Part shown: positions 5,730 to 18,389 of the stretch, one piece after another
How the letters are laid out: each line of letters starts with the position of its first letter
Numbering within the stretch: the stretch's first letter is position 1
Origin: a virus
DNA length: 64,000 bases
Virus record (IMG/VR): IMGVR_UViG_3300018432_000004
Coordinates: 8,156 to 72,155 of that record
Direction: 5' to 3' (one strand)
Made by a program: the position numbers and the translations under genes
Notes under the pieces: model-generated
The model's input: the letters and a program-made list of their open reading frames with translations, nothing else
Database searches by the model: none
Told to the model about the DNA's origin: nothing

Positions 5730-8700
5730 ATGCCAATCGCAACCGCCAGCTCGGCCTACGTCCTCGAGGACCGCGCGAGCCCCGCCCTGCGCGGCATCCG
5801 GCAGGAGGCGGTCCGTACGACGGCCGCGCTGCGGGGCACCGCCGACGCCGGCGACAAGATCGGCGCGCCCGCGCAGCTCCAGCGCCTCGAGCGCTTCGAG
5901 AAGCGCCTCGGGTCCGTAGCGCGCACGGCGGAGAACATGAGCGGGCGCGTACAGCGCACCGTCGGACACATGGAGGGCGTGATCCGACGCGACACGCTCA
6001 AGGCCGAGGCGCGCATCACCGCTCTCGGCGGGCGCATGGACGAGCTCGCGCGCAAGCGCGCCGCACCGCGCGTCGACCTGGACGGCTACGCGGTCACGCT
6101 CGCGCAGATCGCGAGCCTGGACCGCGCAATCGCCGCGCTCGGGCGCCGCACGGCCACGATGGGGGTCGGAACCACCGGCGGCGGCGCGGCGGCGGCTGCC
6201 GCAGGCGGCGCGGGCCGCGCCGCTGGCCGCTCCGGCGCGTTCATCGGCTCGGGCGGCGTCGGCTTCGGCACGACCAGGCGCGGCCTCATCGCCGGTGCGG
6301 CCGTCACGGCGCTGCCGGTCGTCAGCGCCCTCACGGGCACGATCCTTCCCCTCGCGGGGTCGCTGAGCGGCGCAACGGTCGCGGGGGGCGCCACAAGCCT
6401 CGCAGCCGGCGGCGCGCTCGCCGCCGGCATCGGCGCCGTCGTGTCGGTCGCGAAGCCCGCGAACGCCGCGGTCAAGGAGCTGCGCAAGGAGCAGGAGCGC
6501 TACACCGAGGCCGTCCGCGCGTACGGCCCGGCGAGCGAGCAGGCGCTCGAGGCGCAGAAGGCGCTCGACGCGCAGGTCCGCAAGTCGCCGGCGGGCGCGC
6601 GGAACCTCATCCGCGAGCTGGACGCGCTCACCGGCCGCTGGCGCCGCGTGACGCAGGCCGGCCAGACGGACATCCTCGGCCTGCGCGCCGGCGCCGCGCA
6701 GCGCGTGCGCTCGGCCTCCCCGTTCCTAGGCGAGCAGTCCAACCGCGCCGCCGGCGCCGTGCGCCGCGAGGGCCTCAACTTCACCGACTGGGCGACGAGC
6801 CCGGCGGGGCTCATCATCGTCCGCGACCTCACCGACGCGTTCGTCGACAACCTCGACGAGGCCGAGGGCACCCTGGAGAACATCGCCGGCACGTTCGGCA
6901 ACATCGCGCGGGCGTCGCGGCCGTTCTTCGACGAGGGCATGGACTTCCTCGAGCGCTGGACCGGCGGGTGGGAGCACTCAACCCGCGACATAGGTGAGAC
7001 GCGCCGAACGATCGGCGGCTACCTCAACGACCTCAAGGCGTGGGGACGACTCGGCGGCGCCGGCTTCGATCTGATCCGCGACCTCATCATGCCCGGCCGC
7101 CAGCAGGGCACGAGCGCCGTCGAGGACCTCACGATGCAGCTCCGCGAGTGGGACGACTGGGCGAAGCGCAACCCCGAGCGCATCCGCCGCTTCTACCGCG
7201 ACAGCATCGACGGCACGAAGGAGCTGGCCGGCTTCATCGGCGTCATCGCCCGCGACCTGCACGAGGTCGGGCAGCTCCTCCTGCCGATCCTCAGCCGCTT
7301 CGCGCAGCTCGGGCAGCTCGCCGGCGGCGCCGGCCTGCTGTTGCCGACGCTGCTGCGCCTCGGCCTCGGCCGCGCGATGGGCGGGCGCGGCGCCGGCGGC
7401 GGCGGAGCGGGAGGCGGAGCGGGAGCAGGCGGCTCCCCGATAATCGTGGGCGGTCCAGGACGGGCCGCAGGCGCCGCGCCGCGCACCGACTGGACCGGCT
7501 GGACCGGAGGCACCGCCGCGCGCCCGACGAGCAGGCTCGCAGGCGCCCGCCAGCGCGCCGTAGGCGGCGCGCGCTCGGCCGGACGGTTCGCAGCCCCGGT
7601 AGCGGGCATCTCGGGCGTGCTGGGCGCCGCGGGCACGCAGGGCGACCTCAACCAGCGCGTGCAGGGCGGCGTGTCGGCGCTCACGTTCGGCGCGCTGCGC
7701 GGGCCGACGACATCGGCGCAGGCGCGCGAGCAGGGCGAGGCGCGCGCGATCGGCGACGTCGAGCGCCTCAACGTCCCGCGCTCGCCTGCGGACTACCGCC
7801 GGCAGATCGCTCGCCTCGAGCGCCAGCGCGCGGCCGCGCGTGCGAAGGCGGGCCCCCCCGATCGTGCCGGCAGCATCGTCGACAAGATCCCGGTCATCGG
7901 CGGCGCGTCGAAGGCGATCGGCGACACATTCTTCGGCGACGACGAGGCGGAGGCGAGGCGCAACGCCGCGGCCGTCAAGAAGTACACGGCGGCGATCCGC
8001 GAGCTGCGCGCCGAGCAGCGCTCCTACCGCAACGAGCAGGACCGCCGGAAGGGCGTCGCGTCGCAGGCGCACGGCGGCGCGCTCGCCTCCAGCCTGCAGG
8101 AGGGCTTCGGCACGCTGCGCCGCCACGAGGGGCCCGAGGCAGCGCTGCAGCAGACCGTCGACAAGACCGTCGCGAAGATGCGCCAGATGCGCCCCGAGGG
8201 CGCGAAGATCCTCGGCGAGTCGATGCTTGAGTGGGGGCGCACGATCGCGCGCGGCAACCCCCGCATGCAGGCGATCGTGGCCGACATGACCAGCTCGATC
8301 GAGCGGCGCTTCGCGCGGATGGGCAAGCGCGTCGAGGTCGTCAACGGGCGCATCCTGACGGGCTCGCGGTCGGAGTGGCGGCAGATCAGCAACGCGCTGT
8401 CGATGCCCGCAGAGGAGGCGCAGCAGCGCGTCACGAAGGCGTTCACGGCGATTCAGCGCGAAGCGATCGGCTCGCTCAAGTCGATGGGGTTCAGCTCGTC
8501 GGAGGCGACGGCGATCGTCAAGGGCCGCGAGTCCGGCGGCGACAAGGGACGCGCCGCCGACTACGCCGTGAAGCAGGGCCCCGACAGCTACCAGGCCGGC
8601 GTGGTCGGCGGTCAAAAGGCGGGACCGCCGTCGGCGCCTAAGCGCGCGCGCGGCGGCCGGATTCCCGGTCAGGGCCTCGCCGACAAGGTCCCGTTCGGCG

Positions 8701-10136
8701 ACAGCATCACGGCGCCCGGCGAGCTGTGGATCGCCAACCGCCATACCGAGCGGCGCGTGGACCGGATGCTCGAGCCGTACGGCACGACGCTCGCCGGCGA
8801 GATCGAGGGCGAGACCGACCCGCACGGGTCGGTGCTGCGCGAGAGGCCGCGCCTCGGGCGAGGCGGCCGCGTGCGCCGCGACGCCTCGGGCGCCAACGTC
8901 CAGGGCGTAGACGTGAAGGGGTCGAAGCCCGGCTTCTCCGTGTTCATGGATCACTTCCGGCGGCTGTTCGGGCACGATCTGTACGTCATGTCGGGCTTCC
9001 GCGGCGGCTCGCGCGTGGCGGGATCGGGACGCGTGTCAAACCACGCGTCCGGCGACGCCCTCGACATCTCCAACCCCCGCAGCGCCGGCGGCACGCCGCA
9101 GAGCCCGCCGCCGCGCACCGGCCTCGACGAGCTGCACGGCTACATCCGGGCGAACATTCCGTCGCCACCGACCCGCGACCTGCTCTGGCGCACGACCACC
9201 GGCGGCAACCACTACAACCACGTGCACTGGGGCGCGGACCCGAGCGTCACCGCGAGCATCGGCGCGGCCCGCGCCTACGTGGCGGGCCTCCCCGAGGCCG
9301 GCGACGTGTCCGCCTACGGCGGCGTGGCGCTCGGCGGCGACTCGACCGCTGCCGCGCGGTCGATCCGACTCAAGCGCCGGCGCTCGGGGATGCGCGGCGT
9401 GCCCGGCGCGATGGCAGACCGCGCGATGAGCGGCTACGCGACCGGCCTCGAGCGCCGCGTCAACCGCAAGCTGGGCAGCGGCGCGGCGGCGGGCATCAGC
9501 GGCGTGAGCACCGGCGGCGGCAGCGTCGCCGAGCTGATCCGCGAGGTTGGCCTGCCGTCGATCTTCAACGCGATCGTCCGCGCCGAGTCCAACAACAACC
9601 CGCGGGCGCGCAACCCCTCGGGCGCCAGCGGGCTCGCGCAGATCATGATGCCGTTGCACGCCGGGCTCGTGGCGCGCTACGGCGGCGACGTCTTCGACCG
9701 CCGCACAAACCTGCGCGTCGCGAAGCACCTCTACGACGAGTCGGGGCTGTCGCCGTGGGCGGCGTCGCGGCACGCCTGGGGGTCGGCGCTCAACCGCCGC
9801 GAGCGCGGCGGGCGGGTCGGGTGGTACGGCCGGGGCGGCGAGGGCACCGCGAAGCGTCCGACGCTCATCGGCGTCGGCGACGCGCCCGGCGGCCGCGGAG
9901 AGGACTTCAAGGTCACGCCCCGGCGCCTCGGTCCCCCGAGCAGCCGCGCCGGCGCGCGCGGCACCGGCGGCACCCGCGGCCTCGGCAACGTCACAATCCA
10001 GAGCATGACCGTGCACTGGCAGCGCGAGGGCGACCTCAAGAAGGCGATCAAGGCCGAGGTTCACCAGGCGTTCGCCGAGCTCGCCGACGAGCTCGACGAC
10101 GGCGTCGACGCCGACGAGGACGCCCTGATCCGCTGA
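5730..10136 (+). CDS. Tape measure protein with C-terminal LAS/M15-like peptidase and lytic transglycosylase domains
   Basis: 1468 aa, Ala/Gly-rich helical; SNHASGDALD...HYNHVH and IVRAES..NPRARNPSGASGLAQIM motifs. Confidence 0.9.
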   Translation: MPIATASSAYVLEDRASPALRGIRQEAVRTTAALRGTADAGDKIGAPAQLQRLERFEKRLGSVARTAENMSGRVQRTVGHMEGVIRRDTLKAEARITALGGRMDELARKRAAPRVDLDGYAVTLAQIASLDRAIAALGRRTATMGVGTTGGGAAAAAAGGAGRAAGRSGAFIGSGGVGFGTTRRGLIAGAAVTALPVVSALTGTILPLAGSLSGATVAGGATSLAAGGALAAGIGAVVSVAKPANAAVKELRKEQERYTEAVRAYGPASEQALEAQKALDAQVRKSPAGARNLIRELDALTGRWRRVTQAGQTDILGLRAGAAQRVRSASPFLGEQSNRAAGAVRREGLNFTDWATSPAGLIIVRDLTDAFVDNLDEAEGTLENIAGTFGNIARASRPFFDEGMDFLERWTGGWEHSTRDIGETRRTIGGYLNDLKAWGRLGGAGFDLIRDLIMPGRQQGTSAVEDLTMQLREWDDWAKRNPERIRRFYRDSIDGTKELAGFIGVIARDLHEVGQLLLPILSRFAQLGQLAGGAGLLLPTLLRLGLGRAMGGRGAGGGGAGGGAGAGGSPIIVGGPGRAAGAAPRTDWTGWTGGTAARPTSRLAGARQRAVGGARSAGRFAAPVAGISGVLGAAGTQGDLNQRVQGGVSALTFGALRGPTTSAQAREQGEARAIGDVERLNVPRSPADYRRQIARLERQRAAARAKAGPPDRAGSIVDKIPVIGGASKAIGDTFFGDDEAEARRNAAAVKKYTAAIRELRAEQRSYRNEQDRRKGVASQAHGGALASSLQEGFGTLRRHEGPEAALQQTVDKTVAKMRQMRPEGAKILGESMLEWGRTIARGNPRMQAIVADMTSSIERRFARMGKRVEVVNGRILTGSRSEWRQISNALSMPAEEAQQRVTKAFTAIQREAIGSLKSMGFSSSEATAIVKGRESGGDKGRAADYAVKQGPDSYQAGVVGGQKAGPPSAPKRARGGRIPGQGLADKVPFGDSITAPGELWIANRHTERRVDRMLEPYGTTLAGEIEGETDPHGSVLRERPRLGRGGRVRRDASGANVQGVDVKGSKPGFSVFMDHFRRLFGHDLYVMSGFRGGSRVAGSGRVSNHASGDALDISNPRSAGGTPQSPPPRTGLDELHGYIRANIPSPPTRDLLWRTTTGGNHYNHVHWGADPSVTASIGAARAYVAGLPEAGDVSAYGGVALGGDSTAAARSIRLKRRRSGMRGVPGAMADRAMSGYATGLERRVNRKLGSGAAAGISGVSTGGGSVAELIREVGLPSIFNAIVRAESNNNPRARNPSGASGLAQIMMPLHAGLVARYGGDVFDRRTNLRVAKHLYDESGLSPWAASRHAWGSALNRRERGGRVGWYGRGGEGTAKRPTLIGVGDAPGGRGEDFKVTPRRLGPPSSRAGARGTGGTRGLGNVTIQSMTVHWQREGDLKKAIKAEVHQAFAELADELDDGVDADEDALIR

Positions 10137-16655: not shown

Positions 16656-17321
16656 ATGCCGACCATCGTGAACGGCCGACCCCTCGGCGTCGCACAGAAC
16701 GGCGTCTTCACCGAGGCGAACACAGACCCGATCCCCGGCGGACGGCTCTGGCCCGAGGCGGCGCTGACGTGGCTCGCGATGCGCGCCGAGTTCATCGCAG
16801 ACGGCGGCAACCCCGACCACTTCCGGCCCGGCGGCCCGGCCTCGAGCGCCCGGTCGATCGGCCAGCAGCAGCACTTCTGGAGGAGCCAGCCGCCGCCCGC
16901 CGCCCGCCCGGGCACGAGCAACCACGGGTGGGCGATCGCCGTCGACATCCCGTTCGCGGACGCGCAGGCGTGGCTCATGCGCAACTGCCAGCGCTTCGGG
17001 TGGTCGCACGACGAGGGCGCCCGCGTCGGCGAGGCGTGGCACTACCGCTACGTCGGCGCGTCGCCGGCGCTGCTGCGCAAGCTCAAGCGCGACCCGCTCG
17101 CCGGCTACACCGCGAGCGAGAAGCGCTGGGTCAAGGAGTACGACCGCCTCAAGCGCGCGGACCGCGACGCAGCTCGCCGGCGCGTGCTCGTGCACGTCAT
17201 GCGCGAGCAGCGCAAGCGCATCTGGAAGGCCGCGCAGCCGAAGGCGCGCGGCGGGGACGGGAAGGGCTGGACGAAGACGCGCCGGCGGCGCTACACGTCG
17301 CTGCAGGCGCGCACCACATAG
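16656..17321 (+). CDS. Endolysin A: M15B/VanY-like Zn peptidase plus C-terminal basic domain
   Basis: ARSIGQQ, AARPGTSNHGWAIAVDI, EAWHYRY. Confidence 0.85.
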   Translation: MPTIVNGRPLGVAQNGVFTEANTDPIPGGRLWPEAALTWLAMRAEFIADGGNPDHFRPGGPASSARSIGQQQHFWRSQPPPAARPGTSNHGWAIAVDIPFADAQAWLMRNCQRFGWSHDEGARVGEAWHYRYVGASPALLRKLKRDPLAGYTASEKRWVKEYDRLKRADRDAARRRVLVHVMREQRKRIWKAAQPKARGGDGKGWTKTRRRRYTSLQARTT

Positions 17322-17343
17322 GCACCACAACGGAGGGCACCAC

Positions 17344-17730
17344 ATGCTGAAGGCATTCGCAGGCGCGCGGCCGGACATCACGCCGGCCCAAACCACGGCG
17401 ATCATCGCGGCCGTCGCGCAGTTCCTTCGCGCGTTCGGGATCTACGACGTGTCGCCCGAGCAGCAGGACGCGCTCAACGTCGCGTGCGGGCTGCTGCTCG
17501 CCGTCGTCCTGGGCGACGTCGGGATCCGCGCCGCCCGCAACTCCGCCGACGCGAAGCGCGACGTCGCCGCGCTGACCGCCGCGCCGCACCCGCCGATGAG
17601 CGACCCGCCCGAGGACCCCGAGCACGACGAGCTCATGGCCGAGGGAGAGGACCTCCCCGGCGACGCCGAGGAGTTCGCCGCGCAGCCCGACCAGGCGTCG
17701 CGCGTCACCCCCGACGAGCCGCCCGCATGA
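17344..17730 (+). CDS. Putative holin
   Basis: Two hydrophobic segments, acidic C-tail, between two endolysins; GGAGGG RBS. Confidence 0.7.
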   Translation: MLKAFAGARPDITPAQTTAIIAAVAQFLRAFGIYDVSPEQQDALNVACGLLLAVVLGDVGIRAARNSADAKRDVAALTAAPHPPMSDPPEDPEHDELMAEGEDLPGDAEEFAAQPDQASRVTPDEPPA

Positions 17731-18389
17731 ACCGCAAGCTCTCCGACGCGGGCGCGCACCTGATCGAGTCCTTCGAGGGGTTCAGCTCCAAGCCCTACTG
17801 GGACGACGATGGCGGCGTCTGGACGATCGGGTTCGGCAGCACCAAGGGCGTTCGCAAGGACTCGCCGCACATCACGCGCCAGCAGGCCCACGACCGCCTC
17901 ATGCGCGAGGTCGACGCGACGTACGGCGCCGCGATCAACGCCCTCGGGCTGCCGCTCTCGCAGCCGCAGTTCGACGCGCTGACGAGCTTCGTCTACAACG
18001 TCGGGCCGGGCGGCGTCGCGACCTCGACGGGCGTCGGCCGGGCGCTGCGCGCCCGCGACTGGCGGACGGCCGCGGACCGCCTGCTCGACTGGGACAAGGC
18101 GGGCGGGCGCCGCCTGCTCGGGCTCACCCGTCGCCGCCGGGCCGAGCGGGCGCTGTTCCTGCGCACGCCGGCGGTCGATCCGCTCGCGGGATACCGGGCC
18201 GACGAGAAGCGCTGGATCCGCGAGTACGACGAGCTCAAGCGCGAGAACCGCAACGAGCGCCGCCGCGAGGTTCTGCGCTCGGTGATGACGACGCGCCGCA
18301 AGGCGATCTGGACCGCCGGCGAGAAGGCCGGCTGGGACGTCGCCAAGCGCCGCCAGCGCTACCGCAGCCTGCTCGCTCGCACGACCTGA
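17727..18389 (+). CDS. Endolysin B: GH24 phage lysozyme plus C-terminal basic domain
   Basis: LIESFEGFSSKPYWDDDGGVWTIGFG, QFDALTSFVYNVG, GLTRRRRAERALF. Confidence 0.9.
   Translation: MNRKLSDAGAHLIESFEGFSSKPYWDDDGGVWTIGFGSTKGVRKDSPHITRQQAHDRLMREVDATYGAAINALGLPLSQPQFDALTSFVYNVGPGGVATSTGVGRALRARDWRTAADRLLDWDKAGGRRLLGLTRRRRAERALFLRTPAVDPLAGYRADEKRWIREYDELKRENRNERRREVLRSVMTTRRKAIWTAGEKAGWDVAKRRQRYRSLLARTT

Follow-up and report, generated by a model that had tools for sequence, protein, structure and literature searches.

Two unrelated endolysins of an uncultured phage from soil, encoded in a 64-kb stretch of the IMG/VR virus record IMGVR_UViG_3300018432_000004, end in the same small, very basic module. 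The stretch (positions 8,156 to 72,155 of the record; 64,000 nucleotides, here called the window) covers the greater part of the record, which is complete at 73.6 kb, has a G+C content of 72% and carries direct terminal repeats; it is a virus record and not a prophage. The module is 70–76 amino acids (aa) long and is a self-folding, non-catalytic domain of an unnamed family. We consider, with moderate confidence, that it is a lineage-specific wall-binding domain of endolysins, carried by phages of the Solirubrobacterales. A conserved acidic motif, most often on the tail of a holin-like protein, is encoded close to the module in the window and in most of the related loci. This suggests that the module might have a second partner inside the cell, and the two possible roles are not mutually exclusive.

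The shared C-terminal module

When the two endolysins, P0001 and P0002, are compared by BLASTP only the C-terminal 84 columns align, with 52% identity and an E-value of 1e-16. The catalytic parts have no similarity above noise in the same comparison. The original prediction, which was made from the sequence alone, had described two unrelated endolysins with a common C-terminal domain of about 70 aa; this is borne out, and the coordinates that it gave were exact. The first copy of the module is residues 146–221 of P0001 (17091..17318, + strand), with a net charge of +16 and a pI of 11.6. The second copy is residues 151–220 of P0002 (18177..18386, + strand), with a net charge of +10 and a pI of 11.1. 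Is this likeness the result of a recent duplication inside the phage? The two copies are clearly diverged at the DNA level, and the likeness is therefore old and maintained. On this divergence, and on the 52% identity of the proteins, recent duplication was rejected.

The module regions (P0001 residues 140–221 and P0002 residues 145–220) matched no wall-binding family in Pfam-A at E ≤ 1. The wall-binding families checked by profile were LysM, SH3_3/5, PG_binding_1/2/3, CW_7, SPOR, SLH and CW_binding, and the sole Pfam-A matches, to DUF6680 and Mac, were both at the level of chance. There were no matches in PHROGs or NCBIfam, a profile of the module searched against PDB sequences returned nothing but noise (E > 0.5), and at E ≤ 0.01 tblastn found the module in none of 50,697 GenBank phage records. 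It follows from the last of these searches that no sequenced, deposited actinobacteriophage carries the module. The view that the module is unlike LysM, SH3, PGBD and CW_7 domains, which had been put forward on inspection, therefore held in the Pfam, PHROGs, NCBIfam and PDB sequence searches. A profile search had been proposed as a check on this, and when it was run on 1.84 billion cluster representatives there were 136 matches at E ≤ 1e-3. The family thus comprises 136 clusters at 50% identity; its fold is predicted with confidence and its key residues are sharply conserved, which makes it a clean candidate for a new Pfam entry.

Structure prediction, another of the checks that had been proposed, gave a confident result. 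The AlphaFold2 (AF2) model of the module, built from a 23-sequence alignment, is a three-helix bundle (pLDDT 94, pTM 0.79) with helices at residues 8–23, 27–48 and 62–75, and the AF2 model of full-length P0001 has the same three helices. The module is helical and highly basic, as predicted, and its net charge is from +8 to +19 with a pI of 11–12. Conservation was computed over 145 near-full-length family rows, in module numbering. The hydrophobic core is conserved (W13, Y17, L20, L33, M37, I44, W45, W60, Y68 and L71) and a set of polar residues is nearly fixed, with E10, R64 and R67 at 100% and R29, R41, R74 and T75 at >90%. The GGDGKG loop that lies between helices 2 and 3 can be missing, as it is from the P0002 copy. 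The compact fold and its conserved hydrophobic core speak against a simple amphipathic tail that inserts into the membrane.

Searches by fold pointed to no specific relative. Foldseek found nothing at E ≤ 0.001 for the module in the PDB or BFVD. The best result of a wide VIA-align search had a Z-score of 7.7 and the matches were generic helical bundles, within the noise for helical models. The best rows from AFDB/Atlas were unnamed proteins, probably of the same family, together with a GH19 cluster that bears the module, and a search of the ESM Atlas by shape and features yielded nothing beyond generic helical bundles and further members of the family. Fold matches to ribosomal protein bS20 and to Not5 were set aside as common helical arrangements and not relatives.

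Fusion partners and hosts of the module

Across the family the module is nearly always at the extreme C-terminus. In a Pfam tally of 138 members there were 53 with Phage_lysozyme, 10 with VanY, and 2 each with GH25, Amidase_2 and GH19; the VanY/M15 partners are of two subtypes. Every recognisable fusion partner is a peptidoglycan hydrolase, and at least six classes are represented (GH24, M15/VanY, GH25, GH19, Amidase_2 and CHAP-like). By these architectures the module behaves as one that has been exchanged among the catalytic domains of peptidoglycan hydrolases, as are the wall-binding domains of endolysins. In a distant branch of the family (P0165, P0133, P0148, P0152 and P0174) the N-terminal part consists of two to three modules in tandem, and a CHAP-like domain comes next. 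In this branch, P0165 (L016:3202-4290) is encoded after tail-fibre-like genes on a phage contig of 70% G+C, with no acidic motif nearby. Three other members, P0058 (GH25), P0082 and P0102 (Amidase_2), have an N-terminal membrane anchor and the module therefore lies outside the cell.

The presence of the module on more than one enzyme of a phage is the rule and is not peculiar to the window. It is carried by two or three adjacent lysins in no fewer than nine other loci (L003, L004, L006, L007, L008, L014, L015, L018 and L020). At one of these, in a metagenome-assembled genome (MAG) of an uncultured Actinomycetes member, GH24, M15 and GH19 lysins are encoded in a row (L004:2798-5967) and all end in the module. 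These three lysins sit behind a holin whose tail contains the acidic motif twice.

Among 185,579 species genomes, one per species, the module was found at 10 loci, all of them in Solirubrobacterales/Solirubrobacteraceae or in MAGs of unclassified Actinomycetes, and one of the 10 is in an isolate, Solirubrobacter deserti. A search with a hidden Markov model matched 4 of 201 Solirubrobacterales genomes, and in a sample of 401 genomes from the phylum the only match beyond those 4 was a single marginal one (E 5e-4), with no clear match in the ~397 other genomes; sensitivity was limited by the small number of candidates scored in each genome, so that a genome without a match is one of those searched in which the module was not found. 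The Solirubrobacterales are common soil Actinomycetota. The distribution of the module appears to follow this host lineage (class Thermoleophilia, Actinomycetota), in its phages and in phage-derived cassettes. A host autolysin domain was rejected as the main source, as about 2% of the genomes of the order have the module and most copies are in phage contexts. Full-text literature searches on phages or endolysins of Solirubrobacter returned nothing relevant.

Five of the loci (L005, L008, L009, L010 and L011) are chromosomal orphan cassettes that lie among housekeeping genes and are not prophages. The flanking genes differ between loci and include those for a histidine kinase, a Ser/Thr kinase, Obg, glutamine synthetase, ThuA and AlkZ. 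A different setting is seen at L013, where a holin with the motif and a GH24-module lysin form a cassette (L013:1-384 and 7410-8747) between genes for a bacterial gasdermin (PF26164) and a phage sheath. A LuxR-type response regulator is encoded in between, and the island may be tailocin-like or serve regulated lysis.

Promiscuous fusion, C-terminal position, restriction to a lineage and use outside the cytoplasm are together, as judged from the sequences, the signature of an endolysin wall-binding domain. The proposal that the module is a candidate new wall- or membrane-targeting domain gains support from the shuffling of its partners and from its apparent confinement to a single order.

The lysis cassette and its acidic motif

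The endolysin genes belong to a compact three-gene lysis cassette at 16656-18389, on the + strand, in the order P0001, P0003, P0002. P0001 (221 aa, 16656..17321) scored 21.5 bits against the Pfam VanY profile, below the cut-off of 25. Its AF2 model resembles VanY-B (5hnm, 6a6a) and LdcB (4jid, 4mph) with a Foldseek probability of 1.0 and E-values of 2e-4 to 8e-4. In addition, H90, D97, E126 and H129 are invariant among relatives (for H90, D97 and H129, 16 relatives). On its zinc ligands and its modelled fold, the catalytic part of P0001 is assigned to the M15B, VanY/LdcB-like, zinc peptidases. Two M15 lysins related to P0001, P0047 (559 aa) and P0042 (523 aa), contain inteins (Hint_2, Intein_splicing, LAGLIDADG_3 and Hom_end), and that of P0047 is directly before the SNHG zinc-ligand motif. 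To our knowledge, an intein within an endolysin gene is unusual. P0002 (220 aa, 17727..18389) matched Pfam Phage_lysozyme (PF00959) over residues 15–140 with 116.3 bits (cut-off 22.3, E 1.5e-33) and the endolysin family phrog_7 with an E-value of 1e-50. Its catalytic part is assigned to GH24 on a profile score above the curated cut-off. Neither enzyme has any hydrophobic segment (the maximum hydropathy of P0001 is <1.0), and therefore their release should depend on the holin.

P0003 (128 aa, 17344..17730, + strand) is encoded between the two enzymes, in the place where the original prediction had put a single holin. It has two hydrophobic segments, at residues 17–34 (Kyte–Doolittle hydropathy 1.55) and 43–61 (2.11), and a weak match to the holin family phrog_9752 (E 0.024). 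Its homologues hold the same position in related cassettes. P0003 is small, with membrane segments, a charged tail and the expected position in the cassette, and is a putative hole-former. A GGAGG sequence is 7 nt upstream of its ATG, and the start of P0002 overlaps its stop as ATGA. In two metagenomic proteins, P0118 and P0126, an M15-module lysin has been called as fused to the next holin. These are probably the result of frameshift or read-through and are not real fusions; the calls confirm that lysin and holin are adjacent.

The C-terminal tail of P0003 (residues 71–128; 17554..17727, + strand) is acidic, with a net charge of -13 and a pI of 4.05. By the positive-inside rule it would be cytoplasmic, as there are R/K residues after the second hydrophobic segment. 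Within the tail is the sequence LPGDAEEF (17653..17676, + strand). The holin-like proteins of related cassettes also end in an acidic tail with this motif, the consensus of which is [L/I/P]P-x-D-x-E-E-[F/L/M], usually followed by A-x-x-P-P. This feature of the holin tail was missed by the original prediction and it opens the possibility that the lysins dock to the holin. A second element follows the acidic motif, D-S/T-R-[V/L]-T-P-D-x-P-P, at 17695-17724 in the window and also in L013, L008, L005, L024 and P0175; in other tails it reads P-[V/I]-Q-P-S-Q.

LPGDAEEF is the only match to the consensus in all six frames of the 64-kb window. Over the 22 loci, a fixed regular expression placed the motif within 1.3 kb of the module in 16, and a variant in L024 makes this 17. 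There were 18 matches in 142,538 codons near modules versus 1 in 304,378 codons elsewhere (Poisson P ~2e-17), a statistic that is overstated, as the loci are related and not independent. The motif is carried by four membrane scaffolds that have no detectable similarity to one another. In the five orphan cassettes it is on short open reading frames (ORFs) that have no hydrophobic segments and overlap the start of the lysin. These two-gene units of motif peptide and GH24-module lysin (L005:3324-4234, L009:3219-4213, L010:2283-3172, L011:3234-4240 and L008:3372-4234) may represent domesticated lysins, each paired with its own inhibitor or chaperone.

The codons of the motif vary synonymously and selection therefore acts on the motif peptide. 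The lysin encoded after the motif is either GH24 or GH19, and the constant partner of the motif is therefore the module. In a DNA pattern scan of IMG/VR, the only contig found with the motif in a lysis context was one that bears the module. The other high-GC match, L050, falls in a coiled-coil protein of a regulatory region and was judged to be a chance match. Could the motif be nothing but the ribosome-binding region of the next lysin gene? This was rejected, given that its distance from the stop ranges from 8 to ~50 codons and that its codons vary synonymously. The module is present without the motif at L016, L017 and L022, and at L021 and L023 none was found by pattern matching, the only method applied there. 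The lysin of L017 is itself membrane-anchored, and the motif is missing from the adjoining holin. Complex prediction with the module and holin-tail alignments gave a score of 0.18 where the mark was 0.32, and this counts neither for nor against binding.

Possible roles of the module and its closest known systems

The usual job of the C-terminal domain of an endolysin in Gram-positive hosts is to hold the enzyme on the host wall. We propose that P0001 and P0002, which are without export signals, wait in the cytoplasm and then pass through the holin lesion, after which the module would keep each enzyme on the wall of the host. The polar cluster (E10, R64, R67, R29, R41, R74 and T75) might bind an anionic feature of the Solirubrobacterales envelope, and the candidate ligands are a wall polymer or the peptidoglycan stem. 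Both enzymes would then be directed to one ligand, so that glycan and peptide would be cut side by side. A second and non-exclusive role would be for the module to bind the acidic motif of the holin tail or of a small upstream peptide. If binding is indeed lineage-specific, the module would serve as a probe to label, capture or lyse the hard-to-grow Solirubrobacterales, and it would offer a way to study a feature of their envelope.

Several points weigh against binding to the wall as the role of the module. There is no link by fold or sequence to any known wall-binding domain in Pfam, Foldseek, VIA-align or Atlas searches. In P0112 an M15 domain is followed by PG_binding_1 and then by the module, so that the module may not serve peptidoglycan binding. 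A domain with a net charge of +16 would stick to many polyanions, and binding in a crude assay would not be proof of specificity. Finally, the tight genetic link to the acidic motif is not explained by wall binding alone.

Is the basic module then a receptor for the acidic motif, whether this is carried by the cytoplasmic holin tail or by a small soluble peptide encoded upstream? That module and motif are a dedicated docking pair, by which any type of lysin plugs onto any holin tail or peptide, is possible but doubtful, and that docking is the primary role of the module seems unlikely. Under this explanation the lysins would be gathered, neutralised or stabilised at the membrane until the holin fires, and they could also be passed to an export route, as in the Ms6 Gp1–LysA pair. 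Much of what is seen around the motif points this way: its position near the module in 17 of the 22 loci, its four mutually unrelated membrane scaffolds, the non-membrane ORFs that overlap the lysin start at five chromosomal loci, the selection on the peptide, the constancy of the module where the following lysin is GH24 or GH19, and the restriction of the lysis-context motif in IMG/VR to a module-bearing contig. The charges are complementary (tail -13, modules +16 and +10), the self-anchored lysin of L017 adjoins a holin that lacks the motif, and a small protein that binds to an endolysin has a precedent in Ms6 Gp1 (PMC6116114). However, the module is found without the motif at three loci, relatives with a membrane anchor put the module outside the cell and away from a cytoplasmic tail, and the co-occurrence statistic is inflated by related loci. 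The topology of the tail is itself inferred, and the physical interaction is hypothetical. Literature searches found no described interaction of relevance between a holin tail and an endolysin. Textbooks assume that a canonical endolysin is free in the cytoplasm and does not contact the holin. The pairing of a basic domain with an acidic motif makes this assumption a directly testable question. If there is a docking pair, the enzyme would be linked physically to the lesion ahead of lysis, or would be restrained until then, and module and motif would make up a modular holin–endolysin adaptor system outside the canonical model of the free cytoplasmic endolysin.

Two further explanations were weighed. 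Some endolysins of Gram-negative hosts have cationic amphipathic C-terminal helices, and the original prediction had offered membrane targeting as an alternative to the wall. A polycationic tail that permeabilises or inserts into the lipid layer would account for the very high positive charge and the helical content of the module. We regard this as very unlikely, as the compact bundle, the conserved hydrophobic core and the invariant polar residues of the module are not what a free amphipathic helix would show, and the GGDGKG loop is dispensable while the core is kept. The hosts are Actinomycetota, and neither evidence of an outer membrane nor spanin-like genes were seen in the cassette. It is also improbable that the module joins the two or three lysins of a phage into homo- or hetero-oligomers, or folds back to inactivate the catalytic domain. 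Cassettes with several lysins always share the module among them, helical bundles often oligomerise, and heteromers of endolysin isoforms formed via binding domains are known from other phages (PMC12203907). Against this, only one lysin carries the module at many loci (L009, L010, L011, L013 and L017) and the two copies in the window are only 52% identical.

A wall-targeting module has parallels among known domains. PG_binding_1 has a three-helix fold. Like the module, PG_binding_1 (PF01471) is a small helical domain on peptidoglycan hydrolases, including M15 peptidases. There was no match between them by profile, however, and the two stand side by side in P0112, so they are not interchangeable copies. 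The closest parallel in form is CW_7 (PF08230), from the pneumococcal phage lysin Cpl-7. The CW_7 repeats of Cpl-7 are three-helix bundles in which a fully conserved arginine is used for muropeptide recognition (PMC5705596), and we count this precedent in favour of wall binding. Both CW_7 and the module are non-catalytic, C-terminal and three-helical with a hydrophobic core, both have fully conserved arginines (in CW_7 for recognition of GlcNAc-MurNAc-dipeptide), and both are on several classes of wall hydrolase. They differ in that CW_7 has no Pfam match to the module at E ≤ 1 and is absent from the fold-search results. CW_7 is also 37–43 aa long and in tandem repeats, whereas the module is 70–76 aa, usually single, far more basic and found only in Solirubrobacterales phages.

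The C-terminal regions of mycobacteriophage LysA proteins, in the scheme of Payne and Hatfull (PMC6116114), are like the module in being lineage-specific, non-catalytic parts of modular actinobacteriophage lysins; the module differs from them in having no match in the GenBank phage records searched. For docking, the nearest system is that of phage Ms6, in which the chaperone-like Gp1 binds the first 60 residues of LysA (PMC6116114). There, as here, a small protein is encoded immediately upstream of a lysin in a lysis cassette of the actinobacteriophage type, the endolysin has no signal peptide, and a dedicated terminal region of the lysin is the proposed binding site, although the likeness is one of gene arrangement only. 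The site in LysA is N-terminal, whereas the candidate receptor here is C-terminal, the acidic motif is usually within the holin, and binding is hypothetical. Set beside these systems, the module is a new domain family of a known functional kind, and the motif with which it is paired lies outside the standard picture of holin and endolysin.

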